A stretch of 64,000 nt of DNA from Psilocybe cubensis (taxonomy: Eukaryota). The stretch spans positions 62,001 through 126,000 of the forward strand of contig CM039000.1 of NCBI GenBank assembly GCA_017499595.2. Direction: 5' to 3'. Positions 37,706-61,093 of this stretch are shown in pieces; the first letter of the stretch is position 1; each line of letters begins with the position of its first letter. The notes beneath the pieces were generated by a model. It made no database searches and was not told the origin of the DNA. It saw only the letters and a list, made by a program, of their open reading frames with translations. A program made the position numbers and the translations under genes.

Positions 37706-38075
37706 TGTAGCAACTCGAACAGATTGTAACTATCTTATCTTATCATCTCTTTAGTTTTTGATTTGATCTAGCTATGACACTTCGATTACTTTACTTTAGT
37801 CTTCGTCATTCTGCTCCTACAAACTCACCCTCTTAATATGTATATACATCACTATGACCTCCTACTCCAATTACTACTCCAATGCTCCAAAGTATCTAGT
37901 GTATATAAGTAGTTGTAAATTGTACCAAGGAGGAACAACTTGAAATACGAACCCAAACCTTTAAGCTGTCTGTTTTATCACCTTTCCTCTCACCTCTCAC
38001 AATCATATCTCATCTCGTGTGGCTGTACTTAGATTAATAAGCGTAACTGTACGAATTAGTCTGACTACCGTCACA
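37706..38075 (+). repeat. 5' LTR of element A
   Basis: TGTAGCAACT...ACCGTCACA. Matches 61094-61463 except T37913 vs C61301. Confidence 0.97.
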
Positions 38076-38293
38076 TATTTTTTGACAAGCTCCACAATAA
38101 CTTTACCCGCCGATTCCTCGACCCTGGATCGACTTCCGTGACTGACAACATATCTGCTTGAGCTATAATCTACTTGTCTATTGTCTGGTACCCGAGGACT
38201 GATCACCCGACGACCTCAGCAATAGAAATTTAATCTGTGTTTTAATCTCGACAATTTTCCCACACCACTAGTACTAGTAATCTTGTTATAACA

Positions 38294-38820
38294 ATGTCTC
38301 GAACAAATGTATACTCTACTCGACTTAGATCCGGACGAGGATCTTCTGCTCGGAATGAGCAATTAGTAGCAGATTTGGCTGAGCCCATTGATGAGCCAAA
38401 AATTGAAGAACCTGATCATGACGATGATCAGGATGAGGACTCCTTTGATCCAAGAGGATCTTTGAGAAGCCCGTTTGAATTAAGACAGCCGGCCGCTCGG
38501 GGCAATTTGGCCGCTGAGTTTGCGCGAGTAAATGTTGGGTCACAGCCTGATCAAAGTAATACACTTGACGAGACGGCTGAACCGCGTGAACGTCTTGATG
38601 ATTGGATTAGAAATAATCCAAATAATCTAAGAAATCAGAATACTGAGACAGATCAAGATGATCCAGTTGCATTAGCCGAAAATGCATTAACCCAATCCCA
38701 GAAAGACCAAATATCACGGCGTAATGCTAAAGTAATGACGAATGTGATTAGACCTGAGATAACTCGGAATGAATCTGACGTATCTAAAGGCGAAGGACCG
38801 TCTAAACCCAATAAAGGTAA
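38294..38820 (+). CDS. gag: Element A gag-pol, 5' part (interrupted by element B)
   Basis: Removing B plus one GTAA copy joins ...KPNKGK to GPDPREWG in frame with the ORF ending at 60071, giving a single 2532 aa Gag-Pol. Confidence 0.93.
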
Positions 38821-39445
38821 TGTGGGAACCCACTACCGTCTGCGATCAAAAGCGCGCGCGATAGCAAAAGCCTGGCGTCACGAGACAGAGCAAAAGCCCA
38901 TAGCTGTGCCGACGGATGCGACTTCCGACGTGATACAGGAGCGCTGCACCGATGACCTTATCACACACAGGGGAAGATAAGGGACAAAATGCAAGATAAG
39001 TCTTTTCAAACTACAGCATACGAGTGCGTGCGCCACACTCGCCAAGGGGGGTCGAATAAGGAAATAACCACGACCGCCAAGCATTGATGAGCCCCTGTCA
39101 AAGCGCCCACAGGCGCAACGAACAAGGAAACGAGTGTCACGGAGGAGGTGGTGTCTGGCTCAGCACGCAGCAGTAACAGCTTGGCGAAGATAACAAATTA
39201 CTATATATTAACTTAGGTAGTGGGAGACAAGACTTTAGTGGAATACAGAGCTATTTTTTTTCCCTCACATTTCGTCCACCTTGTCTCGGAGTGAATCGCA
39301 CTCGGCAAGGATCGATCTGTTTCGATTTTCTCTCAATTAAAACTCCAACTTGCATCTTGCTACACCATTCAGACATTATCTACAACCTTGGACATTGCAG
39401 ACGGAGTCTGCAAGCTTCGCACACACACAACTTTAACTCACTTCA
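38821..39445 (+). repeat. 5' LTR of element B
   Basis: Matches 52371-52995 except C39323 vs T52873. Confidence 0.97.
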
Positions 39446-39447
39446 AC

Positions 39448-39466
39448 TGGAGCCCACCGCGAGGGG
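39448..39466 (+). promoter_or_regulatory. tRNA primer-binding site of element B
   Basis: TGGAGCCCACCGCGAGGGG lies two bases after the LTR and is complementary to a tRNA 3' end ...GGGCUCCA (Lys-like by recollection; unverified). Confidence 0.8.
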
Positions 39467-39704
39467 TTCTAAAGGTTGTAAACCACCCTATCCTTGATTC
39501 TTGAGTGCCCCAAACAAGGAGGGACTCGAGAACACCCAAGACGCCACGGAAACGCGTCCAACACCTACATATTTTCCCCATTATTTTCACTACCGCCAGC
39601 CTTTATCTGAAACCGATTCGTCATCGGATTCATCGAACGCCTTTGCACAATCGTCCCCGACTCGACCCACATTTGTTCCAGTAAATTGGGGAATTGCAAC
39701 CAAG

Positions 39705-40846
39705 ATGGCGCCACCAAATATGCCTAGCAAGAACCATAGCTCCGCTCCCAAGTTCGATGGAACTGCGGGGTCACTTCCTATGTTTCTAGACGACATTGAA
39801 CAGCTAGCAACGAGCTGTGAGCTTACCCCCAAGCAGACCATCGATTGGACGATTCGTTATGCCCCAGGAAGCGACGAACACGAGCTATGGAGCGGTTTAG
39901 ATACCTCGTCAGGCGATGACTGGATTGCTTTCAAACGCGAGCTGCTTGCACAGTATCCCGGATCGACAGGAGACAGGAAATACTCAGTTGCAAATCTGGA
40001 AATGCTCACTGAAAAACAAGCTGCCGGACAAATCACGAACTCGGAACAATTTGGAACATATTACCGCGCATTTTCGAAAATTTCACGGTTTCTTAAATCG
40101 AAAAACAAGTTGAACGATCGTGAAATAAGTAACCTGTTCATGAGAGGTCTAGACTATGCCTTCAGAGTACAGGTCCGAGCCCAGCTAAGGGCTGAAAACC
40201 CGAAGCATCACAGTGACGACCCTTACACGCTAAACCAAATATGCGAGGCAGCACTATTCATATTATCCTGCAACCACGACGACACCGAAATTGTGGCGCC
40301 AGCACTCGAAGCGTCTCCCTCAGTCAAGCGCGAGCATTTTGATATATCTAGTATTGCTCCAGCACTGCAACAAACGAGCAACTTCAACATGAGTGCCCTG
40401 GCACTGGAACTCATAAAACAGATGAACTTACAACATGCTCCATCAAACGTGTACCAAAACGCCCAGAATCAAGGGTACCCGACGTTGCAAACTCAAGGAG
40501 CACCTACACCTCGCAACAACGACTGTTCCTTCTGCTCTGATCCATCACATTATCAACATAGTTGTGCCAAAGCGGTGGAATATATCAAAAAGGGGCTCTG
40601 TGTGCGCAATAGCGAAAATTTCTTGGTGCTACCAGATGGGACACGTGTCACTCCTCGAACCGCACCGGGAAGGAATATCATGGAACGTGTTGATAACTGG
40701 CATAAAAGCAAATCTGCTAACTCGCCAACTGTATCATCAAACATGGTGAGTGCAGGTTCGGAGTTCAAATGGGAGATTCCCACGACGTCGGCTTTCGCCG
40801 CCGCGATGGACTTTGCGCACAACGAGGTTGCACCACCTACCGAACG
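39705..40846 (+). CDS. gag: Element B ORF1 (Gag-protease), 5' part, interrupted by element C
   Basis: MAPPNMPSKNHSSAPKFDG..., Zn-knuckle-like CSFCSDPSHYQHSC. Rejoins 47242-48166 in frame (PTER-EIEDLQIMES), 688 aa in total. Confidence 0.9.
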
Positions 40847-41296
40847 TGTCAGGGCAACACTATAATCAGTGTGACAAGGCCACCAACAAAGATTAAGCAA
40901 GAGAGAGAGAGAGAGAGCAGAGGGAGAGTAAGAGAGCAAAGAGAGAATAAGAGAGTGAGAGAGATTCAATGGTTCTAAGAGATCACACCAATGATAGTGG
41001 ATATCCTAAGAGATTGAAGCTGAAGCTACAGCTACCTACAAGTCCAGTATTTATACTCTACAGCTATTCTAGAATATTCCCTACATTACATCATAAAGGA
41101 AGGTTAAAGAATAAAAGTGACATCATATAGAAAAAGGATGAGTAAGACTAGGAATCATATAGAATTTACTAGAAAGAAGTGGAGCAAGAAGGCTGTGATG
41201 AAAGAAATAAACTATCTAATCAGATAATTGATAAGATAATGAAAGGATAAGATAATTCTGTAAAGATAAAGAGGGGAAACTGGAGAAACCCTGACA
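40847..41296 (-). repeat. 3' LTR of element C
   Basis: Matches 46787-47236 except C41280 vs T47220. Preceded on the minus strand by PPT AGAGAGGGGGTGA, which also holds the pol stop codon. Confidence 0.97.
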
Positions 41297-44200
41297 TCAC
41301 CCCCTCTCTAAGGCACATTTTCCACAATGTGCACATGGATGGGTTAGTTTAGAGGGTTTAAGAAGAGGAGGAGGTTCAGTAAAGTTAATAATAGGAGTGA
41401 AAGAAAGTCTATCAAAGGTCACAGCAGAAATCCTTCTAGGTGCTGAAGGATGTTTGGCATGGAAGTCCTTGATAGCCTTAGAAGCATTTTTCAAATGCTC
41501 TGCAGGCTCCCAAGTGCATTCTTCATTAGGATAGTTCTTCCACTTGACCAAATATTGAAGTTTGTTTCTAAAAAGTCTGCTGTCCTTGATAAATTCAACT
41601 TCCCACTCAGGATTTTCTCCTTGAATGACAGGAGGTGGTCTAGAAGGAGGCTTTCTTCCTACAATATCTGGGTGATAAGGTAGAAGTTTAACCACATTGA
41701 ACACTGGATGGATTTTCATGGTAGATGGCAGCTTAAGCTCATAGGCATTAGGGCTAATAACTTTGGTAATTTTGTAAGGCCCATATCTTTTATCATCCAA
41801 TTTCTTGGAGGGCCTATCAGTTTTGAGGTCCTTGCCATCCAACCATACCAAATCCCCAACTTTGTACTGAGTTGGAGTACCTCTGTGTCTATTATAGAAT
41901 TTAGCCATATCATCAGCAGCTTTTCTAAGTGCAGACTCTGCTTCTTTCCTGGCTTCTTCCATATTTTTCACAAAGGTATCCACAGTGTCCATTTTACTAT
42001 CTCTAAGGGGTTCAGTGCCCATTCTGGGATGTCTGCCATTATTGAGCATGAATGGTGTCTGCCTGGTTGAAGCCTGAACTCTATTGTTATAAGAGAATTC
42101 AGCTAGAGCTAACCATTCAACCCAATCATCTTGTCTATGGTTTATAAAGAGTCTAAGATACTGCTCAATTTCTTGATTAACTCTTTCAGTCTGACCATCA
42201 GTTTGGGGATGGTAGGCTGTAGATGAGGCTGTCTGGATACCAAGTATTGAGTTGAGTTCTTTCATAAACCTTGAGACAAACTGTGGACCTCTATCATACA
42301 GAATTTTAATGGGTAAGCCATGGTGTTTCCAGACATAATCTCTGTATAGTCTGGCTGTCCCTTCAGAAGTGACTTCATCTGTAGTAGGGATAATGTGGAT
42401 CATTTTACTAAGTCTATCCACAACCACCATAATGGCATTATACCCTTGACATTCTGGTAACCCCATAATAAAGTCCACAGAGATGCATTGCCAGACATCA
42501 GAGGGAATCTCAGTAGGAATTAAAAGACCAAGAGGTTTGGCTGGAAAGGTTTTGGTTCTGTTGCATCTATCACAACCTCTGGTATAGGCTGCAATAAAAT
42601 GTGACATTCCTGGCCACCAATAATTCCTAGAGACTAGCTCAATTGTCTTCCATTTCCCTGGATGTCCAGCAATGAAGGCATCATGGTGCAGTTCCACAAT
42701 CTTTCTTCTAAGATCTTTGTCCTTGGGAACATACACCTTCCCCCTGTAGAGAATAAGGCCTTGTTCTTCTGACCATTCCTGTCCTTCAATCTTCTTGGTA
42801 GAAGATTTCTTGAGCTCCTGAACTGCCTTGACCACCTTTTCATCCATCTCCTTAGCTTCTCTAATCTTCTTAAGAAGATCATTTTCTGCACCAGTAATGG
42901 TAGCATGACCCTGCTTGAGAGCCTGGATTTTAAAGTAGGAAGGTTTGAGGAGAACTACATTTTGGTTATCATTCTCTCCCTTTTTATGATCTGGTCTCCT
43001 AGACAAAGCATCTGGCTTAAGAGATCTTTTACCAGGCCTATGATGAAGAGTAAAATCAAATCTGGACAGGAAGAGTGACCATCTGGCTTGCCTTCTGCTG
43101 AGCTTTTGGGCAACCATAAAGTACTCTAAGTTTTTGTGGTCTGTCCAAATCTCAAAGGAATATTGGGTTCCTTCAAGATAATGTCTCCATTCATCTAGTG
43201 CTCTGATAATAGCCAGCATCTCTTTGTCATGGATCTCATAATTCCTTTCTACTTCAGATAGACTCTTAGACATAAAGGCTACAGGATGCCATTTCCCATC
43301 TGATCCTTCCTGAGATAAAACAGCCCCAGTAGCATAATCTGAACTGTCTGCTTCAACTTTATATGGCTTGTTATCATCAGGGAAAATCAAGACAGGTGAA
43401 GAAGTGACTTTCTTCTTTAACTGGTCAAAGGCTTCCTGCTGTCTAAGACTCCATCTCCAGACTGTTCCTTTCTTTGTCAATTCATGAAGGGGCTTAGCAA
43501 TGTCTGCAAAATCCTCTATGAACCTTCTATAAAAATTAACAAATCCCAAGAATGATTGGACATCCTTGACATTTTCAGGTTCAGGCCATTTAGAAACTCC
43601 CTCTACCTTGACAGGATCCATCTCAATCCTGCCTTGTGAAATGATTAGTCCAAGATATTCAATCTTTTCCTTTTCAAATTCACATTTCTCTGCTTTAAGG
43701 TAGAGTTTGTTCTGTTCTAAGATTTGCAGAACTTGCTTGACTACCTCTCTATGATGATCAAGAGTCTCAGTGAAAATTAAAATGTCATCCATGTAGACAA
43801 TGACAACATTTCCATCAATGAGCTCAATAAAGATATCATTCATCATAGTTTGGAAGGTAGCAGGACTATTGGTTAAACCAAAGAACATGACCAATGGTTC
43901 AAACAGCCCTCTATTGGTTCTAAAGGCTGCTTTCCATTCATCTCCCTTTTTGATTCTGACATTGTTAAATCCCCACCTAACATCAAGTTTGGTGAAGTAT
44001 TTGGCTTTGCTGAGTTTGGTGATGATGTCAGAAATCAATGGAAGGGGGTAGGAGTTCTTGATGGTCATTTCATTCAGTTTCCTATAGTCCTGGACAAGCC
44101 TAAGAGATCCATCCTTCTTCTTGACAAAGAATACAGGGGAGGCCATAGGTGACTTGGAGGGTCTAATCCTGCCAGACTTCAGATTTTCCTCTAAAAAGGC

Positions 44201-45178
44201 ATCAAGTTCCTTTTGTTCATTGGGAGAAAGAGGATAAATCTTGGATCTGTAAGGTTCAGAACCAGGTTTCAGCTCAATAGCATGATCCCAAGGCTTTCTG
44301 TCTGGTAGCCTATCAAAAGATTCCTTTGAAAAAACACCTTTAAACTGATGATAGTGCTTAGGAACAGTTTCTTCAAAGGTTTTCTTAGGGGAATCAGCTT
44401 GCTGATGAGACTCTTCTGCTAATCTTTGAGACATAGTAGAAGTAGCATTAATAGACTGCTTCTGAGGATGCAGGTATGAGATGAAAATTCTGTCCTCAGG
44501 CTCAATCTCAGAATCAGAAGAATCTTCAATAGAATCATCTTCTTCTTCATCAAATTGAGGGAGTTTCCTCCTTTTGACTGCAGCTATTCTCTGCCTCTTT
44601 CTTCTGGCTCTTTTGGCTTCCATTTGGCAGTCAGAGGGACATCTAATAAACTGGACATCCCCTGTCTTCCAATCAACATCTGGATTATGGTGCCAAAGCC
44701 AAGTATGTCCAATAATAGCAGATTTGTCTCCCAAGTCACAAACAGCAAAGGTGGCCCTTTCTGTATGGTTTTTGTGTACCATAATTAAGTCTACTTCCTC
44801 ATGGATAGAGCCACTCTTGTTGAGAGTACCATCAACATTATAGACTGGAATGGCTCTAGGAAGTTTCCTTGTGTTGAGATTATGATACTTCACAAAACCA
44901 GAATGCAGAAAGAGGCCAGTAGCTCCAGAATCAAGCAAAGCATCAACAGATAACCTTTTCTCTGTGTCCATTGTCTTTAAGATGACAGACAAATGGGTAG
45001 AGGTTTTAGGATTATGGTTGAGGATGTAGATCTTTTCAGGGAAGGTAGAAAGAGAGGAAGAAGCAGACATGATTTCTGCACCAGAATCTGAAGACTGAGG
45101 ATCAAGTCTGTCAATTTCATTTTCTAGTACATTAAATCTATTCCATTGGGACATGTCTTTCACCAATGGTGCTTCTAA
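41297..45178 (-). CDS. pol: Element C Pol (PR-RT-RNase H-IN-chromodomain), entered by a -1 frameshift
   Basis: LLDSGAT, YMDDILI, EADSSDYATG..TDHKNL, HHCC and D,D,E integrase, GPY, and chromodomain EWEVEFIKDS..YLVKWKNY..CTWEP. Slippery A AAT TTT immediately before the gag TAG. Confidence 0.95.
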   Translation of the reverse strand, partial: LEAPLVKDMSQWNRFNVLENEIDRLDPQSSDSGAEIMSASSSLSTFPEKIYILNHNPKTSTHLSVILKTMDTEKRLSVDALLDSGATGLFLHSGFVKYHNLNTRKLPRAIPVYNVDGTLNKSGSIHEEVDLIMVHKNHTERATFAVCDLGDKSAIIGHTWLWHHNPDVDWKTGDVQFIRCPSDCQMEAKRARRKRQRIAAVKRRKLPQFDEEEDDSIEDSSDSEIEPEDRIFISYLHPQKQSINATSTMSQRLAEESHQQADSPKKTFEETVPKHYHQFKGVFSKESFDRLPDRKPWDHAIELKPGSEPYRSKIYPLSPNEQKELDAFLEENLKSGRIRPSKSPMASPVFFVKKKDGSLRLVQDYRKLNEMTIKNSYPLPLISDIITKLSKAKYFTKLDVRWGFNNVRIKKGDEWKAAFRTNRGLFEPLVMFFGLTNSPATFQTMMNDIFIELIDGNVVIVYMDDILIFTETLDHHREVVKQVLQILEQNKLYLKAEKCEFEKEKIEYLGLIISQGRIEMDPVKVEGVSKWPEPENVKDVQSFLGFVNFYRRFIEDFADIAKPLHELTKKGTVWRWSLRQQEAFDQLKKKVTSSPVLIFPDDNKPYKVEADSSDYATGAVLSQEGSDGKWHPVAFMSKSLSEVERNYEIHDKEMLAIIRALDEWRHYLEGTQYSFEIWTDHKNLEYFMVAQKLSRRQARWSLFLSRFDFTLHHRPGKRSLKPDALSRRPDHKKGENDNQNVVLLKPSYFKIQALKQGHATITGAENDLLKKIREAKEMDEKVVKAVQELKKSSTKKIEGQEWSEEQGLILYRGKVYVPKDKDLRRKIVELHHDAFIAGHPGKWKTIELVSRNYWWPGMSHFIAAYTRGCDRCNRTKTFPAKPLGLLIPTEIPSDVWQCISVDFIMGLPECQGYNAIMVVVDRLSKMIHIIPTTDEVTSEGTARLYRDYVWKHHGLPIKILYDRGPQFVSRFMKELNSILGIQTASSTAYHPQTDGQTERVNQEIEQYLRLFINHRQDDWVEWLALAEFSYNNRVQASTRQTPFMLNNGRHPRMGTEPLRDSKMDTVDTFVKNMEEARKEAESALRKAADDMAKFYNRHRGTPTQYKVGDLVWLDGKDLKTDRPSKKLDDKRYGPYKITKVISPNAYELKLPSTMKIHPVFNVVKLLPYHPDIVGRKPPSRPPPVIQGENPEWEVEFIKDSRLFRNKLQYLVKWKNYPNEECTWEPAEHLKNASKAIKDFHAKHPSAPRRISAVTFDRLSFTPIINFTEPPPLLKPSKLTHPCAHCGKCALERG

Positions 45179-46281
45179 AAATTTTTCTTTTCCTCATCTT
45201 TCTGCTCCTTGCCTTCCAAGATTAATTTCCCAAAGTAGTCAGCCAGTTCTTCATGGGTCATAGCATTGATGTTAACTGATGACCTGCAGTTTACAGCCTT
45301 ATGACCAGGCTTTCTGCACTTGAAGCAAACAATTGGCCTAACTGACTTCCATCCAGAGTCAACCTCCATGGGAACTACATCTGGTTGCTTTGCCTGAGCA
45401 CCAAAGGTCCTTGAGCTGCTGTTGGAAAAGACTGGAGGATTTGGAGTAGGCTTAGGACCAGCCTTGGGAGTTGGGGCTTTAAGGAAGGGAGAAGAAGAGG
45501 AGGAGGAAAGAGACTTGGTAAAGGCCTCACTCTGTCTCCACTGCCTATCTAGCCTAGTACTCCATTTAATCCATCCATCCAAGGTTTTGGGCATGTCAGG
45601 AACATAGTAGACTGCATTCCTGAGATTTTCATTAAGCCCAGCCTTGAATTGGTCTACCAAAGCAGCATCATTATACCCAGTATCTGAGATCAGAGCCCTG
45701 AAGCTAGCAACATACTCATCAGCAGTCTGTCTGCCTTGCTTGAGCATGTGCATTTTATGCTTAGCTGTGTTGGAGGGGTCTGGATCTGCAAACACTTCCC
45801 TAAATTCATAAACAAAGTCAGCCCAAAGACCTTCTTGGGACTGAGCATTGTCTATTACTTTAGTCTTCTCATATGCCCACTTCCCAGCAGTACCTCCTTT
45901 CATATGAGATAGAGCACAAATAACTTTCTGAAAGTCATCTGTAATCCCTTTCCCATAGAAATATAATTTAAGCTGACTGAGGAAGTTTTCTGCCTTCTCC
46001 ATAGAACCATCAAATGGATCTGGAGGTGAGACTTTAATGGCAGAGTGTGAACAGGAAGGGGCAACATGAGGGGTAGGGAAAGAGTGAATATCTAGAGCAG
46101 CAGGTGGTGGTGGTGGTGGTGATGGTGACTGACTGACTGGTTGCTGAGGGTGTGGTGGAGTGGATAATGACTGCTGCTGCTGTCTAAGAAAATTCAACTC
46201 TTGGGTAAGGAGCTGGACCTGATGCATGAGCTCTTCCACAGAAGGAGTGGTGGGAGGCAATTGGGAGGGGTCCATGTCCAT
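45175..46281 (-). CDS. gag: Element C Gag (368 aa)
   Basis: PDPFDG, LKQGRQTADEYVASF, PMEVD and the CCHC knuckle CFKCRKPGHKAVNC. Confidence 0.95.
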   Translation of the reverse strand: MDMDPSQLPPTTPSVEELMHQVQLLTQELNFLRQQQQSLSTPPHPQQPVSQSPSPPPPPPAALDIHSFPTPHVAPSCSHSAIKVSPPDPFDGSMEKAENFLSQLKLYFYGKGITDDFQKVICALSHMKGGTAGKWAYEKTKVIDNAQSQEGLWADFVYEFREVFADPDPSNTAKHKMHMLKQGRQTADEYVASFRALISDTGYNDAALVDQFKAGLNENLRNAVYYVPDMPKTLDGWIKWSTRLDRQWRQSEAFTKSLSSSSSSPFLKAPTPKAGPKPTPNPPVFSNSSSRTFGAQAKQPDVVPMEVDSGWKSVRPIVCFKCRKPGHKAVNCRSSVNINAMTHEELADYFGKLILEGKEQKDEEKKNF

Positions 46282-46773
46282 GGGTAGGAGTAGGTAGGCT
46301 CTCTGATGTGTGTGTGGGAGAAGCTATCTACTGAAAGTGCCCTTGAAACTATACTAAGTATTCTAAAAAAAATATCTATCTACTGGATACCCAGTTGTCA
46401 CACCACTCAGGGCTCTAAACCTAGGATCACAGGGTTACTGGATATTTCCTAGACCACCAAAAACAGAACACTAGTAGGACTGTGTCTGCCCCAACAGTTG
46501 GTATCCCTATCTACTAAGTTCACACACAGCACACAACAGAGAGTAGGAAAGATGATGAGCCAAAGGTCTTGAGGAAAGGTTTTGAGGAAAGGTTTTGAGT
46601 AGGATATTGAAGATTGGTGGAGATGTAGAGATTGGTAAGAAGATTGGTGAAGAGGTTGATGAAGAGGTTGGTGGGTTGGAAGTGGAGGAAGAAGGTTGAG
46701 GTAATGGTGTTGAAGAGGTTGAAGAGGTGAAGAGTTTGGTGTTGAAAGAGAGATGGTGGAGTTGTCTTGAGAG

Positions 46774-46784
46774 AGCTTCAATCT
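46774..46784 (-). promoter_or_regulatory. Putative self-priming PBS of element C
   Basis: AGATTGAAGCT (minus strand) is the exact 11 nt complement of AGCTTCAATCT at 46961-46951 within the 5' LTR. No TGG tRNA-type PBS is present. Confidence 0.8.
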
Positions 46785-46786
46785 TC

Positions 46787-47236
46787 TGTCAGGGCAACAC
46801 TATAATCAGTGTGACAAGGCCACCAACAAAGATTAAGCAAGAGAGAGAGAGAGAGAGCAGAGGGAGAGTAAGAGAGCAAAGAGAGAATAAGAGAGTGAGA
46901 GAGATTCAATGGTTCTAAGAGATCACACCAATGATAGTGGATATCCTAAGAGATTGAAGCTGAAGCTACAGCTACCTACAAGTCCAGTATTTATACTCTA
47001 CAGCTATTCTAGAATATTCCCTACATTACATCATAAAGGAAGGTTAAAGAATAAAAGTGACATCATATAGAAAAAGGATGAGTAAGACTAGGAATCATAT
47101 AGAATTTACTAGAAAGAAGTGGAGCAAGAAGGCTGTGATGAAAGAAATAAACTATCTAATCAGATAATTGATAAGATAATGAAAGGATAAGATAATTCTG
47201 TAAAGATAAAGAGGGGAAATTGGAGAAACCCTGACA
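46787..47236 (-). repeat. 5' LTR of element C
   Basis: Contains minus-strand TATAAATA at 46995-46988 and a (GA)n tract. Confidence 0.97.
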
Positions 47237-47241
47237 GAACG

Positions 47242-48166
47242 CGAAATTGAGGACTTACAAATCATGGAATCGCTTGTGGCATCTACACAAAAGAAAATTG
47301 ACGATACCAGAAAGAAGTACTTCGGGACCAAGGGAACCGGGGGACCAGCAACGAGAAGCAAAACCAAGGCGGCAGATACGATTTCCCACGACCCGACCAA
47401 GACACTCGCACCGGCCGTTCCAACCATACCTGCATCGCACTCGGCCAACAGTACACATTTCAGGTACTCTACACCCATAGAAGAGGTAAAAATCGTGAAG
47501 AAAGTACTGGATACAGCACTAGACGCCACAGTGACGCTGTCCAACAGGGAACTGCTGGCAGTGGCACCAGAGGTGAGGAGACAGTTCAAGGACCTGACTA
47601 CGGCCAGACGCATCCCTACCGAGCAGACAGGGTCTAGCATGGTAGTAGGAATGCCTCAGAGTGAAGAATACTCGGCTTACCTTGCTTCGCTCTTGCCCAA
47701 CAAAGAAGGGATGGTAGTGGCAGACCATGTACAAGAGTTGAGATGTCTAGACTTTACCATTGGGGACATGAAGGTCGAAGGGATCATGGATGAAGGGTCC
47801 CAAATTGTTGGAATCAGGAAGGACATCTGGGAGAAGCTGGCAGTTCCAATCAGGTCCGACCATGTGATGGTTATGGAGTCAGCCAATGCAAGCAAGGACA
47901 AGACACTCGGACTCATACAAAACCTGAAGATATCCATTGGAGGATATGACTTCTATGTGCAGGTGCAAGTGGTCCAAAACGCACCATATGAACTCTTGGT
48001 AGGACTGCCTTTCATGTGCCTCACGCGTCTGGTCACTAGGCACTTTGAGGACGGGTCATCTGAAGTAACTATGATTGATCCTAACTCTGGAGCGGAAATA
48101 ACAGTTCCAACTCGCAAACGGGACCGAAGCAGCACAACAGCCGCCACAGTCAGTGTGGATTTTTAG
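47242..48166 (+). CDS. Element B ORF1, 3' part including the aspartic protease
   Basis: IMDEGSQIVGI protease motif and YELLVGLPF. Ends G GAT TTT TAG (slippery heptamer). Confidence 0.9.
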
Positions 48167-51100
48167 GGGTTGATGAATCGAATATAAATCGAGGAGACCA
48201 GAGTCTTCACATCATAAATACGTCAAATGTTTCTATTTCTCAATCCAATTCCTTTTCTCGCTATTACACGTCTGATAACCGAAATCAAAACGCATCGCTC
48301 GCATATAAAAAAGTCGCCAATCAAATTAAACCCGTCGCAACAACGCTACCCGAAAAGTTTCGCATTGTACGACGCATTCCGTCAGACCCGCTTGCAGATC
48401 TGCCTGCTCTTCCGACCAGACCGCCCGAATTTACACCAGGACAACGATACACACTACAAAGAAAAGAAGCCATGAAAGTTAACCCAGACGGATTCCTCTG
48501 GCCAGAGGAAGAGAAATTGGTGCACCACATAATACTGTTACACAAAACCGCGTTCGCATGGGATGAATCCGAGAAAGGAAAGTTTAGTGACAAGTATTTC
48601 GACCCAGTGGTGATACCCACTATTGAACATGTCCCATGGGTTCTGCGTAACATCCCCATTCCTCCAGGAATCTTCCATCAAGTGGTAGAGGTCATCAAAA
48701 ACAAAATATCGTCGGGAATATATGAACCATCAAATTCATCGTACCGGTCGCGTTGGTTTTGTGTACTCAAGAAAGATGGGAAATCTCTACGAATTGTGCA
48801 CGACTTACAACCATTAAATGCGGTCTCAATTAAGGATAGCGCACTTCCGCCCATGGTAGAACAGTATGCTGAAGCCTTTGGCGGACGAGGCTGCTATGCA
48901 GTGTTTGATCTGTTTGTAGGGTTTGATCAACGGTCTCTGGCAGTCGAATCACGCGATTTGACAACATTCCAGACGCCTTTAGGCACCTTCCGATTGACAT
49001 CTATTCCAATGGGGTACACAAACTCGATGCAAATCCAACACGGCGACACAACATTTCTACTACAAGATGAGATTCCCCATATAACAATGCCCTTTGTGGA
49101 CGATATTCCAGTGAAAGGGCCGGCAACGCAATATGAACTGGAAGAGGGATCCTTTGAAACGATCAGAGAAAACCCAGGGATTAGGCGCTTTGTATGGGAG
49201 CATCTCCAGAATGTAAATCGGGTGATCCAACGAATCAAACACGCAGGGGGTACGTTCTCAGCGGCGAAGTCATTCCTGTGTGTCGAAAGTGCCATTGTTG
49301 TTGGACATAAGTGCACGTATAATGGTCGCGTGCCAGACGAATCACGGGTTCAGAAAATAACAGATTGGCCAATTCCACAAAACCTTACGGACGTCCGTGG
49401 CTTTCTGGGTACACTAGGGACCATACAAATGTTCATCAAGGATTTTGCTATTCATGCCAAACCGCTTGTACAGCTCACCCGAAAGGACATGGACTTCGAG
49501 TTTGGGGAGACTCAGTTTGCATCACTGGAGAAGATGAAGATACTGGCCAGAACGTGTCCGGCTATCAGGGCAATCGACTACACATCTGGAAACGAGGTTA
49601 TACTCGCAGTAGACTCGTCGTGCATCGCGGTAGGATTTATTCTATCACAGCTGGGTGACGATGGGAGAAGATACCCGTGCAGATTTGGCTCCATAACATG
49701 GAACGAACGCGAGCAGCGATATTCACAAGCAAAAATTGAGCTCTATGGCCTCTTCCGGGCACTCAAAGCGTACCGGGTGTTCATAGTCGGCGTGCACAAC
49801 TTAGTGGTGGAGGTCAATGCAAAATACATAAAAGGTATGATCAACAATCCAGATATCCAACCGAGCGCAACCATAAACCGGTGGATCGCGGGTATCCTCC
49901 TATTTGACTTCAAACTTCGGCACGTCCCTGCCAAAGACCATGCGTCTGCGGACGGACTATCGAGGCGACCCAAAGCAGACAATGATCCAGACGAAGCAGA
50001 AGATCATGACGACTGGATAGATAATGCATATTCCTTTGCAATAGAGTGCTTGAACCACCAGGCTGTGCGTGCGGCTCAAGTCACCAGTAACAACAAAGCA
50101 TTACGAATGGATGCATCTGCTCTTGTAGCAGCAATACATGTCAATATGGCTATTCCTCGTAACAGCAAAAGCGAAGCGCGCGATCGGGACCTCGAAGCAG
50201 TTCATATGTTTCTAGAAGCACCCAAGCGACCAGACAACATGTCTGACGCAGAATATACCAAATTTCTTCGTCTGGTATCAAACTACTTCATCTTGGACAA
50301 GCAGCTGTGGAGGAAGGACAGGCATGGCAGACACAAACTTGTCATTTCGCCCGAGCTACGCTACAAACTTCTCAAACAAGCACACGATGATTTAGGTCAT
50401 AAAGGGATCTATACAGTGCGGATGCGACTTCTCGAACGATTCTGGTGGCCAGATCTGGAATTGGATGTCAAATGGTTTATAAAGACGTGTCACGAATGCC
50501 AGACCCGAAATACCATGAAAGTTTCGATACCAGCGACAGTGCCAATGCCGGCAGGGCTTTTCAGAAAGGTTTATGTTGACACTATGCTCATGCCAAAAGT
50601 GCGCGGATTCCGCTACATAATACACGCCCGTTGCTCGTTAATATCATACCCCGAATGGGTGGCCACTCGAACCGACGACTATACGGAAATAGCCGCTTTC
50701 CTGCTTCAGATCCTGACACGGTGGGGTGCAATAGAAGTGATTGTGACAGACAATGCCCCCCAGTACCTGCTTGCTGCCAAACATCTTGCAGAACGATATC
50801 ATATTCACCACATCCGAATATCTCCTTATAACTCTTGTGCACAAGGCCCGGTTGAACGTAGGCATTATGATGTACGAGAAGCAATAATAAAAGCCTGCAG
50901 AGGGGACGAGTCAAGGTGGCTGGATGTGGTGAGTTCGGTGTTCTGGGCGGAGAGAGTTACCATACAAAAGTCGACGGGTTATTCACCCTACTACCTCGCA
51001 CACGGCGTCGAGCCTTTATTCCCTTTTGATCTCGCTGAAGCAACCTATTTAGCACCGCCTTTGGAGTCCTTGGTATCGACAACAGACCTTATTGCACATC

Positions 51101-51525
51101 GAGCTAGAATGCTTCAAAAGCGGCCAGCAGACTTACAACGTGTCAAGGAACAGGTATTCAAGTTGCGTTGGGCAGCAGTGCAACAGCTAGAGAAGAAACA
51201 CATGGAAAACAGGACCGATTTTGACTTTAAACCGGGAAGTCTAGTGCTTATCAGAAATTCACGTTTCGACAAGGGCCTACAAAACAAGACAAAACCTCGA
51301 TATGTCGGACCAATGCTGGTAGTGAAACGAACACAAGGAGGCTCATATATTCTCAGCGAGCTAGATGGAGCCATATCCCGCTTGCGCTTTGCAGTGTTCA
51401 GGCTGATTCCTTATTTCCCACGGACCCTAGCGTCGGTTCCTGTTACATCCATGGTTGACGATGACCTCGCCAACGTTGAAGAGAATACTCACGACAGCGG
51501 AAATGTATTGGACGTCGAATTTTGA
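48163..51525 (+). CDS. pol: Element B Pol (RT-RNase H-IN), entered by a -1 frameshift
   Basis: The frame is open from 48163 into the track ORF 48472-51525. Motifs LRIVHDLQPLN, FVDD, AVDSS, HHCC, VTDN..VERRH and YVGPM. Confidence 0.93.
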   Translation, partial: LGVDESNINRGDQSLHIINTSNVSISQSNSFSRYYTSDNRNQNASLAYKKVANQIKPVATTLPEKFRIVRRIPSDPLADLPALPTRPPEFTPGQRYTLQRKEAMKVNPDGFLWPEEEKLVHHIILLHKTAFAWDESEKGKFSDKYFDPVVIPTIEHVPWVLRNIPIPPGIFHQVVEVIKNKISSGIYEPSNSSYRSRWFCVLKKDGKSLRIVHDLQPLNAVSIKDSALPPMVEQYAEAFGGRGCYAVFDLFVGFDQRSLAVESRDLTTFQTPLGTFRLTSIPMGYTNSMQIQHGDTTFLLQDEIPHITMPFVDDIPVKGPATQYELEEGSFETIRENPGIRRFVWEHLQNVNRVIQRIKHAGGTFSAAKSFLCVESAIVVGHKCTYNGRVPDESRVQKITDWPIPQNLTDVRGFLGTLGTIQMFIKDFAIHAKPLVQLTRKDMDFEFGETQFASLEKMKILARTCPAIRAIDYTSGNEVILAVDSSCIAVGFILSQLGDDGRRYPCRFGSITWNEREQRYSQAKIELYGLFRALKAYRVFIVGVHNLVVEVNAKYIKGMINNPDIQPSATINRWIAGILLFDFKLRHVPAKDHASADGLSRRPKADNDPDEAEDHDDWIDNAYSFAIECLNHQAVRAAQVTSNNKALRMDASALVAAIHVNMAIPRNSKSEARDRDLEAVHMFLEAPKRPDNMSDAEYTKFLRLVSNYFILDKQLWRKDRHGRHKLVISPELRYKLLKQAHDDLGHKGIYTVRMRLLERFWWPDLELDVKWFIKTCHECQTRNTMKVSIPATVPMPAGLFRKVYVDTMLMPKVRGFRYIIHARCSLISYPEWVATRTDDYTEIAAFLLQILTRWGAIEVIVTDNAPQYLLAAKHLAERYHIHHIRISPYNSCAQGPVERRHYDVREAIIKACRGDESRWLDVVSSVFWAERVTIQKSTGYSPYYLAHGVEPLFPFDLAEATYLAPPLESLVSTTDLIAHRARMLQKRPADLQRVKEQVFKLRWAAVQQLEKKHMENRTDFDFKPGSLVLIRNSRFDKGLQNKTKPRYVGPMLVVKRTQGGSYILSELDGAISRLRFAVFRLIPYFPRTLASVPVTSMVDDDLANVEENTHDSGNVLDVEF

Positions 51526-51654
51526 CACCGTCCCAATCTTGCAGCCAACCCTACTAATCTATAAAAATTTCTTTTCTCTCAAGGACTGTCACTTAGAATC
51601 GACCGATTAAAAAACTGTCAAATAAACAAAAAACAAGCAACAAATAACTATTTA

Positions 51655-52327
51655 TTACACCCGACGCCCGCTCCTAATGCCCCACTGCAAACCACTGTCT
51701 GGAATCACCTCTGTGACATCCTGTTCCGGCTCGCCTTCATCCCTGGCCTCGTTCTCGCCTTCCAAAAGTGGCATGTCATCGGTCCCACTGTCAGAGGAAA
51801 CGTAAATGGAATCGTCCTCCCCATAAATAGCCTTCTCGATCTGCTCAATATACCACGAGGTTATATCAAACCGCTCGCGTTGCTCCCCATTTATAATGGT
51901 GTAGACTGCTGCAATGGCATCGCGTTGAGCACACTGGGGAACACGGTCCGCAGATCCTCGTTCCAATGCACTCTGGAACGTGACGAGGTCACGGTCAAAG
52001 ACACTGACTATCAAGTCAAGCTCCCGCATCGCGTGGCGGCTGCTCGCCATGCCGCGCTGTCACACCATAGGTTAATATACGTGGAAACATTTGCAGAATG
52101 GTTAGGCTTACCACGGCATTAAGAAAGTGGATAAAATTAAAGAAGTCGCCTCGCGGTCCATGGCTGCCCTCCGTAATGACGCGCATGCCGGCGGCAACCG
52201 TAAAGCTCGTGTCTCGGTGCCAGTGTTCGGTAGCAAAGAGGTTGATTCGGTGGATACTGTTTTCGGTGAAAACTCTAAGCATGATGAAAGTGGTGCTGAA
52301 GTCCGAATTGAGTGTTTGGATGGGCAT
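51655..52327 (-). CDS. Spliced antisense accessory gene within element B (exons 52327-52112, 52056-51655; ~205 aa, unknown function)
   Basis: A 55 bp intron GTAAGC...TATTAAC...GACAG (52111-52057) joins two minus-strand ORFs in frame (..FIHFLNAV-RGMASSRHAMRELD..). TATAAA at 52358-52353. Confidence 0.75.
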
Positions 52328-52370
52328 TTCCAGGTTGACACGGAGGTCAACATTTATAGTACCGGGGAGG

Positions 52371-52995
52371 TGTGGGAACCCACTACCGTCTGCGATCAAA
52401 AGCGCGCGCGATAGCAAAAGCCTGGCGTCACGAGACAGAGCAAAAGCCCATAGCTGTGCCGACGGATGCGACTTCCGACGTGATACAGGAGCGCTGCACC
52501 GATGACCTTATCACACACAGGGGAAGATAAGGGACAAAATGCAAGATAAGTCTTTTCAAACTACAGCATACGAGTGCGTGCGCCACACTCGCCAAGGGGG
52601 GTCGAATAAGGAAATAACCACGACCGCCAAGCATTGATGAGCCCCTGTCAAAGCGCCCACAGGCGCAACGAACAAGGAAACGAGTGTCACGGAGGAGGTG
52701 GTGTCTGGCTCAGCACGCAGCAGTAACAGCTTGGCGAAGATAACAAATTACTATATATTAACTTAGGTAGTGGGAGACAAGACTTTAGTGGAATACAGAG
52801 CTATTTTTTTTCCCTCACATTTCGTCCACCTTGTCTCGGAGTGAATCGCACTCGGCAAGGATCGATCTGTTTTGATTTTCTCTCAATTAAAACTCCAACT
52901 TGCATCTTGCTACACCATTCAGACATTATCTACAACCTTGGACATTGCAGACGGAGTCTGCAAGCTTCGCACACACACAACTTTAACTCACTTCA
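52371..52995 (+). repeat. 3' LTR of element B
   Basis: Direct repeat of 38821-39445. Confidence 0.97.
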
Positions 52996-52999
52996 GTAA

Positions 53000-55900
53000 A
53001 GGCCCAGATCCCCGTGAATGGGGTGATATTGACCTTGATGACACTGAAATGAGTCTTGAAGCGCAGCAAGCAGAACTCGAGAGGCTTAAAGAAGCATTTA
53101 AACAAAAGAAAAACCTTGTAAATAAGATTAAGCAATCTAAACATAAGACCATTAACGATGAGGCAAATCATCAACGAGTGCTAGGTACCCCAGTACCTGG
53201 TAATCAGTACCTTAGGCCACCGAATCAAGGGGCAAAAATGGCAACTAGTCGGGCAATTAATCAATTAGCGCCAAATAGTTATTTGGCCCGTACTTTGGAC
53301 AACATGGATCGCCTAGGAACTCACAAGGGAGACGATGGAGATCCAAGCAATGACTCGTCGGACAGCAGTACAGACGAGGACAATAACCCCAGTCCTAATC
53401 CTAATCAAGGAGACCGTGGGATGTCTAAATCTACGGATAGGTCAGACCCGCGTGAATCAAAGAAAAAGAAGAAGAAATCAAATACATCTCGTAAGTCGGG
53501 ACTAAAACCCATCGCTCCAAAGGAGTATGATGGTACTCCTGACTCTCGAATGTTTAATCGATTTGTGTCCGAGGGAACTACCTATTTAATTGATGGTAAA
53601 GTTCCTAAAGATCGTCAAGTATTTGTACTATCTTATTACCTGACAGGTACAGCATATGACTTCTACACTCAGAAGGTGTCTATGAACTTTGATGAATGGG
53701 ATTTAAAAGATTTCTTTGAGCAATTATTTGATTATTGCTTCCCCATCACGTACCGAGCTGAACAGCAAGTTAAATTAAGACGTTGTTTCCAAAATGACCG
53801 CCGGGTAGCTGCCTACGTACACGAGTTAACGGAATTATACAATTTAATTGGAACAACTGATCCAAGGGACAAAGTTGTTAAACTATGGGATGGATTGCGA
53901 GTCCCAATTCAACAAGGATTGTATCGAGATGGATATAATCCAGATATTTCTACGTGGGATGAAGTTGTTTACCATGCAGAAATTCTAGAGATTGCAGAAA
54001 GCGCTGCAAATCGAGTTAATCGAAAGAACCCACCTAATAATCAATCGTCTGGACACTCCAATTCGGGCCACAGTTCTTCTAAAGGAAAAGGGCGAGATCT
54101 ACGGTCTGAGAGGGCTGTATCTCGACCAAACCCTCGAGATAATGCTGCTGGTACCCGTCAAGCGAATACACCGTTTAAGAGTACCGTCCAGAGGTCTTAC
54201 ACACGTGAAATTAGGTCAAATACACCGCGATTTAGCCCATATTCGCGTGGGACAACAAGACCTGCGGATAAGCGCCCGTTAGAGAAATCTCGGAATAATC
54301 TATTAAATGACAAAGATAGAGCGGAGCACTTAGCTTCAGGAAAGTGTTTTACTTGTCATGAACCGGGACACATGTCCAAGAACTGTCCTAAAAAGAATAC
54401 AGTTCGTTCAAGCTCTTCTAAACCACCTGGACTTTCAAACTTTAATGTTGAAGTAGATCCAGATAAGCTACTTGAGTACGAGTCAATTCATGAACTTGAT
54501 ACCAGTGAAAATGAGGATAACCTTTCGTCAAATGATGACATAGAGTTAATGGATAATTTATCCCTTAACTTGATTGAAATACAACCATTTGAACTTCCCA
54601 AATTAGCTGTGCAAGTTAGTACTAGGCCTAGGTGGAATGACTACCATCCTGAGATGCCTAGAAGGATTCGTTTAGGAGATGCCCTTGCTAGAATGGCTGA
54701 ATATGTACTGAGTAGCTGTCAACCTTATCCAGGAGACAGTGATTATGCGTCACATCGAAATGAATTGGACCGGTTCTTTGTTTCACGAGGGCCAGGTCAA
54801 TTTTACTTTATATATGATAAATACAGGCTAATACGTATGGATATTCATCTTAGATACCTCGCAGATCCTTACTTTAAAATCTGTGATTGGTACTGTAGAG
54901 AACTAACTGCACATTTTGGAGGTTTACTTGATGGAACTAAGGTACATACCATGGGCAATGCCTATGAGTTTAATGCCATGTTGGTACTCAGAAGTGGAAT
55001 CTCTACATTATATCCTACTCGAGATCCAAATATTTATGATGAATTTCGCTTTACAGTGGTATCTAACACCACCACTACATGTCATATTCATGATGAAGAC
55101 TTTGAAGGGTTACCCCTTGTAATTCCTAAAACAAAGCTTCAAAATCCATACTTTGACATTGGAAATTGGTACAGAATTCACAGATATCGAATAATTGAGA
55201 TATCGGACTTGTCTAGTGATGAAATTTATCCACAGATTTCATCAAGTCGTAATGGCACAAGTGATGTATTGTTCTATGATTCGTCTGAATCAGAGGACTC
55301 AAATTATTACTCAGATGACTCATCTGAACATTCTCGTGTTAATGAAGTATCCGATACGGACGATGTATATGTTTTTGGGCAAGAAATTGAAGATACCTTG
55401 CCAGAGGCGCCCGTAAATGAAATAAGCGCCGAAGAACGAGCCTGGGAAACTGCTCGTTCAGGCCGTAGCATGCGTGAGGATCGCATTTTAGATGATATAA
55501 TTGCGTACCGAATGAAATATGCGTTGAATAACACACAACCATTCCCAGAGAAAGGTTATCCTATTAAAGTATCTGGAAGATTTGAAGTTAAACGTATGAA
55601 TAATGTCCTATACATGGTATATGATGGAGTGCGCAAACTTACAACTTATTTCCCCGTCCGGGAAGTCTCCGAGCCAAACTTTAAGCTTGGAGTAGAATAT
55701 GCGAAACGCATAGCGGAATATGAAGGAATCCCAATTCCAATGCATTGGCTATACAATAATTTCCATTTCTCTATGGGATATTGCATTGAACGTGGTCTAG
55801 AACAAGCGCTTCAAGCTTGTAGACCATTTGTACCAGATGTACCATTTCAAGATCAAGATAAATTCCGATTTGTAGTCAAGTCATATAAGGATAACTATAA

Positions 55901-58900: not shown

Positions 58901-60071
58901 ATTATTGAATCCGTTACCTGTACCTGGAGTACCGTGGGAATCGATAGGTGTGGACTTCGTGGGACCACTTCCTGAGTCAAAGAATAGAAACAGTACTTTT
59001 GATTGCATTGCCGTGGTCATCTGTTTACTTACAGGAATGGTTCATCTAGTACCAGCTAGAATTAACTACAATGCAAAACAAATGGCTGAGTTAATGTTTG
59101 AAGAGGTTTACAAACACCATGGTTTACCTAAACATATCATTAGTGACCGAGATGTCTTGTTCACGAGTACATTCTGGATTCAATTAAATAAACTAATAGG
59201 TACTGAACTCAAGATGTCAAGTGCCTATCATCCAGAAACAGATGGATCCACGGAACGTGCTAATCGGACTATCACGCAGATGTTGCGAAACTGTGTATCA
59301 ACCAAACAAACCGATTGGGTTAGTAAATTACCTAACATAGAGTTTGCCATTAACTCTGCTCGATCCGAAAGCACTGGATACGCTCCATTCTTTTTAAATA
59401 CAGGTCGCATGCCTCGATCAATGATCTGGGACTATGCAGATAAGTCTGAATACCCGTCCGTTCGAAGCTTTGCACTCCAACGGAAGCTTGCCATAATTGC
59501 CGCCCATGATAGCATTTTAGCATCACGAGTCAAACAAACTCAAGACGCAAATAAACGTCGCAGAATGGCTCCATTTACTAAAGGAGATCTAGTATATGTC
59601 TCTACAAAGAACATTTCATTCCCTAAAGGTTATGCACGTAAATTAGTGCCTAAGTTTATTGGACCTTACTTAATTTTAAGAGACTTTGGAAATCAATCTT
59701 TTGAAATTGAGCTGCCTCGTTATCTAAAACAACGCGGTGTACACAATGTATTCCATGCGTCTTTGCTTAGGATACACATCCCTAATGACGATAGATTATT
59801 CCCAGGAAGAAACACCACACAATTAAACCTAGAAAGCGAATTTGAACCTGAATGGGCAGTGGATAAAATTTTGAGTCACTCGGGCTCCAAAGACCATGCC
59901 ATTTTTGAGATTCAGTGGAAAGCAGGCGACAAAACATGGCTCCCATATCAACAAATTACGCACCTCAACGCTCTGAAGGAATACCTCGAGCTACTGGGAG
60001 TTGAAACCATTCTTTCTCTCCCTCCTGGGTCAGGAAAACCCCCTCAGAATGACCCACAAATTAGCCAATGA
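53000..60071 (+). CDS. pol: Element A gag-pol, 3' part (capsid, CCHC, unknown 4-repeat region, PR, RT, RNase H, IN, chromodomain)
   Basis: PKEYDG, CFTCHEPGHMSKNC, LLDTGS, YLDDII, VTDGC..TDHK, HHCC and D,D,E integrase, FIGPY, EWAVDKILSH..FEIQWK..TW. No stops or frameshifts. Confidence 0.95.
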
Positions 60072-60203
60072 CTTCATCGCACCATTCTCACTGTTTTATC
60101 GTATAAATACTCTACTATTCGTCAGTTAATTTCGTTCCCAATATCACACAGCTATCAACTCAAATCACAACCAGTTCATTTCGCTTTTTCTATCACTATC
60201 ACC

Positions 60204-61022: not shown

Positions 61023-61093
61023 CCTCGCATTCCTCTATCACCAATCTGCCTCCCAAATAATTGAGGATTCTTGCAGAACCCTCGGAGGGCGTA

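Follow-up and report, generated by a model that had tools for sequence, protein, structure and literature searches.

A chromovirus free of CpG dinucleotides, nested in two CpG-containing retrotransposons of Psilocybe cubensis

Results

Structure of element C

We analyzed a stretch of 64,000 nucleotides from Psilocybe cubensis (assembly GCA_017499595.2, contig CM039000.1, positions 62,001 to 126,000 of the forward strand), referred to here as the window, in which three long terminal repeat (LTR) retrotransposons of the Ty3/gypsy type are nested: element A contains element B, which in turn contains element C. Element C, the subject of this report, occupies positions 40847-47236 on the minus strand and contains no CpG dinucleotide at all. 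Judged from its sequence, it is a complete Tf1/sushi-type chromovirus in which no part is visibly damaged. Its parts, and the copies of its target-site duplication (TSD), are as follows.

40842..40846, no strand: left copy of the TSD, GAACG, which is element B sequence; directly flanks the LTR end
40847..41296, minus strand: 3' LTR, 450 bp, TG..CA ends, 0 CG; 449/450 identical to 46787-47236
41297..41310, minus strand: polypurine tract AGAGAGGGGGTGA (minus strand); abuts the 3' LTR and overlaps the pol stop codon
41297..45193, minus strand: pol frame (open reading frame, Pfam), 1298 aa between stops, 1285 aa when counted from the ATG at 45154
45175..46281, minus strand: gag, 368 aa; Ty3_capsid 3e-10, Retrotrans_gag 3.5e-9, zf-CCHC 3.3e-4
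45178..45184, minus strand: candidate -1 frameshift heptamer A-AAT-TTT, directly before the gag stop TAG
46282..46786, minus strand: untranslated leader, 505 nt, 0 CG; small indels vary among genomic copies
46774..46784, minus strand: candidate primer-binding site (PBS), 11 nt, AGATTGAAGCT; begins 2 nt past the 5' LTR
46787..47236, minus strand: 5' LTR, 450 bp, 0 CG; TATAAA at LTR position 242 (46990-46995)
47237..47241, no strand: right copy of the TSD, GAACG; directly flanks the LTR end

An earlier note on this DNA, made by reading the letters, had described LTRs that differ at one base, open gag and pol frames and intact catalytic motifs, and all of this stands. The single LTR mismatch in 450 positions lies at offset 433, where neither copy has a CG. 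The pol product of 1285 residues carries LLDSGA (protease) at 86, YMDD at 467, an HHCC motif and a DD35E pattern, and its Pfam matches are RVT_1 (1.1e-37, residues 344-505), RT_RNaseH (1.8e-38, 593-699), Integrase_H2C2 (7.1e-20, 812-869), rve (3.2e-10, 889-983), SH3_Tf2-1 (3.7e-18) and Chromo (2.4e-15, 1184-1233 of 1285). The domain order is thus protease, reverse transcriptase (RT), RNase H and integrase (IN), with the integrase after RT as in Ty3/gypsy elements and a C-terminal chromodomain on the integrase as in chromoviruses. Other Ty3/gypsy features are the TG..CA LTRs with a short TSD, a capsid-like gag with one CCHC zinc knuckle (CFKCRKPGHKAVNC) and the polypurine tract before the 3' LTR. 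The final codons of gag read AAG AAA AAT TTT TAG, and pol lies in the -1 frame with a 19-nt overlap, open from element coordinate 2044; gag-pol would be expressed through -1 frameshifting.

Inspection of the sequence after the 5' LTR revealed no TGG-type tRNA PBS. The candidate PBS is exactly complementary to LTR positions 276-286 (46951-46961), 34 nt downstream of the TATAAA, and by arithmetic such an 11-nt match has a chance expectation of ~6e-4. In Tf1, which primes itself, the PBS pairs with the 5' end of the Tf1 transcript and not with a tRNA 3' end; by analogy, LTR 276-286 may be the transcript start and self-primer of element C. No other copies or solo LTRs of element C were found within the window.

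Absence of CpG across element C

The computed count of CG in the 6390 bp of element C (GC 0.410) is 0, as the earlier note had found line by line, against 267.5 predicted from base composition, a figure close to the roughly 250 that it had estimated. The reverse dinucleotide, GC, occurs 217 times (observed/expected ratio, o/e, 0.81). Zero was observed in every part of the element, with predicted counts of 157.6 for pol, 57.9 for gag, 20.3 for the leader, and 13.5 and 13.3 for the 3' and 5' LTRs. When the element was shuffled 200 times by mononucleotide, 226-298 CG were obtained, 267.0 on average; for a count of zero, the Poisson probability is ~1e-116. The longest CG-less gap in the 64-kb window spans 6395 bp, from a CG at 40845, the one already pointed out in the left TSD, to a CG at 47240, so that its bounds are exactly element C plus the TSD edges; the second and third longest gaps measure 490 and 481 bp. 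Because the CG-free run corresponds to one mobile element to the base, and given the shuffles and the Poisson estimate, chance is ruled out.

Only element C is depleted when dinucleotide ratios are computed for the three elements and the remaining window, a comparison that the earlier note had proposed. CG occurs 338 times in element A (o/e 0.85), 436 times in element B (0.96) and 2090 times in the ~40 kb of the window outside the nested elements (0.95), in keeping with the note's description of these sequences as rich in CG. The GC content of element C (41%) equals that of element A.

Two other CG-poor stretches in the window lie outside any recognized element: 8819-9882, with 4 CG in 1064 bp at ~38% GC, and 25190-25671, an AT-rich 482 bp with 0 CG. 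Neither has LTR-like TG..CA ends or a TSD, and neither resembles element C or the fetched loci described below.

Codon choice and dinucleotide composition

The avoidance of CpG in coding sequence is synonymous. All 91 Arg codons of gag and pol are AGA or AGG (pol 79/79, gag 12/12), none of the 395 Ser, Pro, Thr and Ala four-fold codons (TCN/CCN/ACN/GCN) ends in G, and the third-position pyrimidine is C at 0/229 codons that precede a codon starting with G, versus 310/694 before other bases. The pattern predicted beforehand, with every Arg AGR (AGA or AGG), no NCG codons and no C|G codon junctions, is therefore realized without exception. The Arg content of pol (6.1%) is near that of elements A and B (6.7-7.2%), both of which make free use of CGN codons for arginine, of NCG codons and of C|G junctions. 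At alignment columns where Arg is present in at least 70% of 12 other intact elements, element C retains it in 13 of 14, and all 13 of these are encoded AGR in element C, whereas the 12 other elements use CGN in 112/148 cases. Deamination of CGN yields Cys, Trp, stop, His or Gln codons and never AGR, so the AGR arginines require transversions filtered by selection.

The compensating excess of dinucleotides in element C is distributed over AG/CT (o/e 1.40/1.37), TC/GA, CC/GG and CA/TG (1.22/1.14). The TG and CA values resemble those of element B (1.15/1.18), without the excess of transition products that marks decay. CAG/CTG (CWG) is at 0.99 of expectation, which identifies the depletion as CG-specific. 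An excess that is spread, and not concentrated in TG/CA, argues for an equilibrated CG-specific composition and against fresh deamination.

Two known forms of hypermutation were considered for element C and rejected. Repeat-induced point mutation (RIP) of the Neurospora type does not fit a CA o/e of 1.22, which is not depleted, or a TA o/e of 0.69, which is no excess. For a CG-deficient hypermutated relic, the CpG deficiency fits, but there is no TpG/CpA excess, the frames are open and the LTRs have 1 mismatch.

CpG in related elements

A protein search with pol returned thousands of relatives, the best 87% identical and most of them on metagenome contigs of 5-6 kb; the named ones are from Agaricomycetes, among them a Lyophyllum shimeji match named 'retrotransposable element tf2 155 kda protein type 1-like'. 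At the DNA level, metagenome contigs were scanned (at least 600 stretches), and the comparisons below concern the best 80 of 578 confirmed relatives. Viral contigs added 2 distant loci only, and genome contigs yielded none.

The two closest relatives among these 80 are as free of CpG as element C. The closest, L041, is 87% identical to it in amino acids and 80.5% in nucleotides over 2155 bp, and its whole contig of 2536 bp has 0 CG against 96 predicted; the second, L002, is 73% and 71.5% identical over 2691 bp, with 0 CG against 116 predicted in 2699 bp. Both copies are dead, L041 with 6 in-frame stops and L002 with 2. The other 78 loci are 39-59% identical to element C, with CpG o/e of 0.06-1.22. 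The earlier note had argued that the absence of CG is not passive decay of this copy, and had named as the case that would speak against its reading one in which element C alone is depleted among CpG-rich close relatives. The first point is borne out by the intact reading frames and LTRs, the AGR recoding of Arg and the CG-free state of L041 and L002; the second does not describe the two closest DNA relatives.

Changes that would create a CpG are absent between element C and either relative. For element C versus L041 and L002, T>C differences occur before non-G at 100/674 and 130/690 sites, and before a conserved G at 0/273 and 0/287; A>G differences occur after non-C at 106/844 and 165/969 sites, and after a conserved C at 0/218 and 0/246. 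About 68 and 96 CpG-creating transitions were expected in the two comparisons and 0 were seen (Fisher p 1e-11 to 1e-22). That no such change is found over 20-29% nucleotide divergence indicates that the absence of CpG has been maintained and not merely inherited once.

In a FastTree phylogeny of the RT-IN core, from which L041 was omitted since it covers fewer than 300 residues of that core, element C and L002 form a clade with support 98. This clade nests among L001 (o/e 1.27, intact), L003 and L017 (~0.55, intact), and L004, L033 and L073 (0.5-0.65, broken). The nesting among CpG-containing relatives indicates that the CG-free state is derived.

Among the fetched relatives, low CpG otherwise accompanies broken frames only. 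The longest open reading frames (ORFs) at loci with o/e of 0.06-0.5 measure just 165-470 aa, and CpA is in excess there (1.3-1.6); elements with an ORF of at least 1000 aa have CpG o/e of 0.53-1.21, element C excepted. When both strands of 82 loci were surveyed for ORFs of 400 aa or longer, 53 were found, of which only that of L002 falls below an o/e of 0.1; the 12 that reach 1000 aa have a minimum of 0.53. The absence of CpG is thus a trait of the lineage to which element C belongs: it is derived, was kept through divergence and was achieved synonymously.

On some related contigs, CG-free runs of 2-4.4 kb (maximum 4360 bp; GC 28-38%) lie beside broken gypsy pol genes, at L028 (the whole 17.4-kb locus), L055 (7845-15667) and L034 (340-5900 and 15727-19128). 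Their composition suggests that CpG decay has gone to an extreme in these runs, which lie in transposon-rich regions of related fungi.

Copy number and occurrence

Element C was found in 16 listed sequencing runs from 8 studies. For five of the coded organism labels, 0.77-0.92 of the sampled 31-mers were in common with it, and for another two 0.36-0.39; the near-identical sequences under the five labels could come from strains or very closely related species, or could reflect a recent spread by horizontal transfer. No run recorded as RNA is among the listed holders. One run, X14, whose RNA nature is merely guessed, contains six short near-identical pieces of element C, which we count as evidence neither way. 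In run X13, contigs over 43077-44035 are ~87% identical to element C (27-31 differences per ~235 bp) with a word depth of ~3200, compared with ~4 for near-identical pieces, and a related family seems to be enormously abundant in the organism coded G from which this run derives.

In the raw DNA reads of run X19, mean depth was ~75 over the flank, 18 over element B, 16 over element A and 1487 over the interior of element C. Relative to the flank, this amounts to 19.7x for element C, 0.24x for B and 0.21x for A, placing element C at ~80-90x of A and B. Hundreds of reads leave the LTR ends of element C, and the consensus agreement of their loose ends is just 0.34-0.43, which points to many different insertion sites. 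Among 72850 aligned reads, 45551 were at least 99% alike, and the variants listed inside element C, 3 substitutions and 9 indels, include none that creates a CG.

The variants within element C in X19 include, in the leader, 13 nt skipped at 46588 in 609/1532 reads and 1 nt at 46365 in 565/1386; copy variants span 46289-46727 of the leader, and rarer internal deletions also occur, among them one of 1387 bp (43059>44447) in 15 reads. This suggests that the copies in X19 include subfamilies and deletion derivatives.

Elements A and B and the neighboring sequence

The two elements that enclose element C are the following.

37706..61463, plus strand: element A, outermost Ty3/gypsy element, contains element B; 370-bp LTRs with 1 mismatch, TSD GGCTG
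38821..52995, plus strand: element B, Ty3/gypsy, CpG-rich, host of the element C insertion; 625-bp LTRs with 1 mismatch

Element A has a 2340-aa gag-pol ORF with protease, RT, RNase H and integrase, and the domain matches of element B are to integrase, RNase H and a protease-like domain. The sole LTR mismatch of element B is CG versus TG. One LTR mismatch in each member of this triple nest (1/370 in A, 1/625 in B and 1/450 in C) indicates that all three insertions are very recent. In X19, 16 reads join 38816 to 52996, which corresponds to element A without B; taken with the A and B depths of ~0.2 of the flank, these reads indicate that the insertion of B, and probably also that of A, is polymorphic or hemizygous in the X19 isolate.

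CpG sites in this sequence are highly mutable. Between the window and X19, 37 fixed differences are listed in element A, element B and the flank; 32 are transitions, and half of these (16/32) interchange CpG with TpG or CpA. As CpG bases make up 9.6% of the sequence of A, B and flank, CpG hypermutability is ~9-fold, which is the classic signature of 5-methylcytosine (5mC). The premise of the earlier note, that transposon methylation in basidiomycetes is largely in the CG context, agrees with the Agaricomycete data in the relevant passages of two reports: in Pleurotus ostreatus, methylation is mainly at CpG and located in repeats (PMC6191308), and in Ganoderma sinense, 98.7% of 5mC is at CpG with transposons as the main target (PMC4457147). 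According to the passages on G. sinense, C>T changes in repeats favor CpG in a RIP-like manner, and transposons both mutated and methylated are mostly silent (PMC4457147).

Elsewhere in the window, two direct repeats of 300 nt (27850-28149 and 29893-30192; 88% identical, 2043 bp apart) are possibly LTRs, belonging to an element that is small or degraded. The product of a long GC-rich ORF (2753-5497; 58-63% GC) is an HMG-box protein whose best homologs, the named ones coming from Galerina, Hebeloma, Gymnopilus and other Agaricales, are only ~40% identical to it; by this measure it appears to be a fast-evolving regulator adjoining the transposon cluster. Together with the Agaricomycete relatives of pol, these homologs place the host among the Agaricales.

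Discussion

Origin of the CpG-free state

As to how this lineage lost its CpGs, we lean towards long-term selection among element copies under a host genome defense directed at CG. The host would lay 5mC almost solely on CpG in repeats, which would both silence them and speed the mutation of every CpG, making methylation and deamination the probable selective agent. Copies with fewer CpGs would then be silenced and damaged less, and what would remain in the end is an element with nothing for CG methylation to act on and free of hypermutable sites, which continues to multiply. Intact frames, AGR recoding, compensating dinucleotides that are spread and the persistence of the CG-free state through divergence together argue for selection among copies against CpG. 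The high copy number of element C, known for one family in one run, is consistent with evasion.

The alternative nearest to this is a pure mutational by-product, in which CpG-targeted hypermutation of high-copy repeats combines with purifying selection on the proteins and the loss of CpG brings no advantage. CpG is indeed hypermutable in A and B, decayed relatives lie at o/e 0.06-0.2, related contigs hold the CG-free runs of 2-4.4 kb described above, and a CpG-preferring, RIP-like mutation is reported in the relevant passages on Ganoderma (PMC4457147). The dead copies L041 and L002 remain CG-free, and the non-coding LTRs and leader of element C are as CG-free as its coding parts, all of which this explanation accommodates. 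However, a ~9-fold mutational bias alone would probably leave CpG at ~0.1-0.25 of expectation, not at 0 of ~480 for element C and its two CG-free relatives combined. Broken frames and a CpA of 1.3-1.6 mark the remaining CpG-poor relatives, whereas element C is intact with TG/CA at just 1.14/1.22, and its conserved arginines, AGR at 13/13 columns, again call for selection-filtered transversions. Even under this explanation the survivors are still selected for lacking targets, so that the main difference from selection among copies is whether CpG loss itself raises fitness. We judge the purely mutational origin unlikely. A cause at the RNA or cDNA level, such as a ZAP-like CpG-sensing factor or a deaminase acting on reverse-transcription intermediates that penalizes each CpG, would suit a count of exactly zero better than density-dependent silencing does, and the whole transcribed unit, leader included, is CG-free. 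U3 before LTR position 276 lies outside the 5' end of the putative transcript and is CG-free nonetheless, though transcription of the 3' LTR includes it; CpG o/e is 0.95 for host sequence in the window, which argues that host transcripts are under no such pressure; and we know of no CpG-sensing RNA factor in fungi, though no search was aimed at one. We regard such a cause as improbable.

An imported composition, in which element C arrived by horizontal transfer or introgression from a CpG-poor donor lineage or genome, would agree with the sharing of its 31-mers under the coded labels from 8 studies, with the great uniformity of its copies and with the normal CpG of the host and the other transposons. 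Set against this, the coded labels may stand for strains or for sister species, Agaricomycetes supply the closest named protein relatives, and the lineage is CG-free over 29% nucleotide divergence, so that a purging pressure acted wherever element C lived and import relocates the cause without removing it. Zero CpG is, to our knowledge, far beyond any known genome-wide depletion, and we consider import very improbable. Synthetic CpG-free genes exist, and an artefact of assembly, conversion chemistry or synthetic DNA was therefore considered as well; we found no support for one and give it practically no credence. The CG-free run ends at LTR termini and a TSD inside another transposon, independent raw reads contain the element at high depth, diverged CG-free relatives lie on unrelated metagenome contigs, and cytosine in other contexts within element C is normal.

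Several observations weigh against selection under CG-directed defense as the origin. The AT-rich decayed runs are CG-free over kilobases, which shows that mutation alone can clear CpG and keeps the mutational explanation alive. Elements A and B are CpG-rich and yet intact, young and at the same locus, so CpG content alone is no bar to activity. It is unclear how density-dependent silencing would remove the last few CpGs, which an efficient repeat-targeted CpG mutator or a per-site RNA/cDNA sensor would explain better. The lineage is represented at the DNA level by three CG-free sequences, two of them dead copies, while many intact relatives at 60-87% identity entered the comparison as protein only. 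The ~20x estimate for element C is rough, as the flank is possibly not single-copy and the estimate comes from one run and three families, and the X19 variants examined were 40 of 665, so that minor CpG-bearing variants of element C are possible.

Implications

A stronger proposal, which we make tentatively and with some doubt, is that the complete CpG purge is an evolved form of stealth: having recoded its Arg and NCG codons, its C|G junctions and its regulatory sequence throughout, the chromovirus lineage would show nothing to the CG-only methylation of Agaricales and would not be subject to 5mC decay. Element C would then truly escape methylation and silencing. If so, stealth would explain why element C, and not its CpG-rich neighbors, burst to tens of near-identical copies and occurs under several of the organism labels. 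In that case element C would be nature's equivalent of transgenes engineered to be CpG-free and, so far as we know, the first eukaryotic transposon shown to escape a defense by eliminating one dinucleotide entirely.

CpG depletion in fungal transposons is usually read as the scar of a winning host defense; in element C it looks like the transposon's answer. If the CG-free copies are unmethylated and active, they constitute a natural experiment on whether CG methylation is necessary for transposon control in mushrooms, and would also inform how methylation is targeted (by sequence, repeat status or chromatin) and how far synonymous recoding can go in a conflict between parasite and host. With CpG-rich A and B and CpG-free C nested at one locus, the proposal is directly testable. 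For annotators, the element is a warning: a transposon low in CpG need not be dead.

Comparison with known systems

Among chromoviruses, element C shares with Tf1/Tf2 of Schizosaccharomyces pombe the order of protease, RT, RNase H, integrase and chromodomain, and the SH3_Tf2-1 domain; its 11-nt candidate PBS, complementary to a site 34 nt past the TATA, may match the self-priming arrangement of Tf1. Tf1 has a single ORF, whereas in element C gag and pol occupy frames of their own, linked by a putative -1 frameshift, and CpG-freeness is undescribed for the Tf1/sushi group. Engineered CpG-free transgenes resist silencing, and vertebrate RNA viruses and retroviruses suppress CpG to avoid the CpG sensor ZAP (PMC10714974, PMC12582503). 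Element C resembles both in being a parasite or vector purged of one dinucleotide, which leaves a CpG-specific host system without its target; it differs from the viruses in belonging to another kingdom, in that the presumed sensor is a DNA methyltransferase and not an RNA-binding protein, and in that the purge is complete and not partial.

The defense described in Ganoderma sinense and Pleurotus ostreatus is the presumed selective agent, and its CpG signature recurs in elements A and B (16/32 transitions); the passages of PMC4457147 and PMC6191308 on which we draw concern the defense and its victims, and a target-less element is not described in them. In Pucciniomycotina, RIP-like hypermutation at TpCpG was reported by Horns et al. 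2012 (PMC3318451), the relevant passages of which also cite Hood et al. 2005 for Microbotryum transposons that are poor in TpCpG where mutation is nonsynonymous, a pattern discussed as counter-adaptation, and note no clear RIP-like signal in the three Agaricomycotina examined. The likeness to element C lies in a transposon that counter-adapts to a C-to-T defense by lacking its target. On these passages, however, the Pucciniomycotina pattern concerns TCG and is partial, whereas element C is from Agaricales and is affected in all CpG contexts, non-coding sequence included.

An intact, fully CpG-free lineage of fungal transposons is not reported in the literature searched, which did not extend to the text and supplements of Clutterbuck 2017 (Fungal Genet Biol 104:16), where an earlier mention is possible. 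As cited in PMC11451569 and PMC10787394, that work describes CG-deficient transposon fractions of Basidiomycete genomes and ascribes the depletion to hypermutation of transposons at CG, an account that the broken, CpA-rich relatives found here (o/e 0.06-0.5) fit. Element C differs from what these citations convey in being intact and multi-copy, with zero CpG reached synonymously and without a marked TpG/CpA excess. The CG deficiency of basidiomycete transposons is itself already known; what sets element C apart is that it is complete and proliferating, free of CpG in all contexts including non-coding sequence, from Agaricales, and part of a clade that has held this state over ~29% nucleotide divergence.

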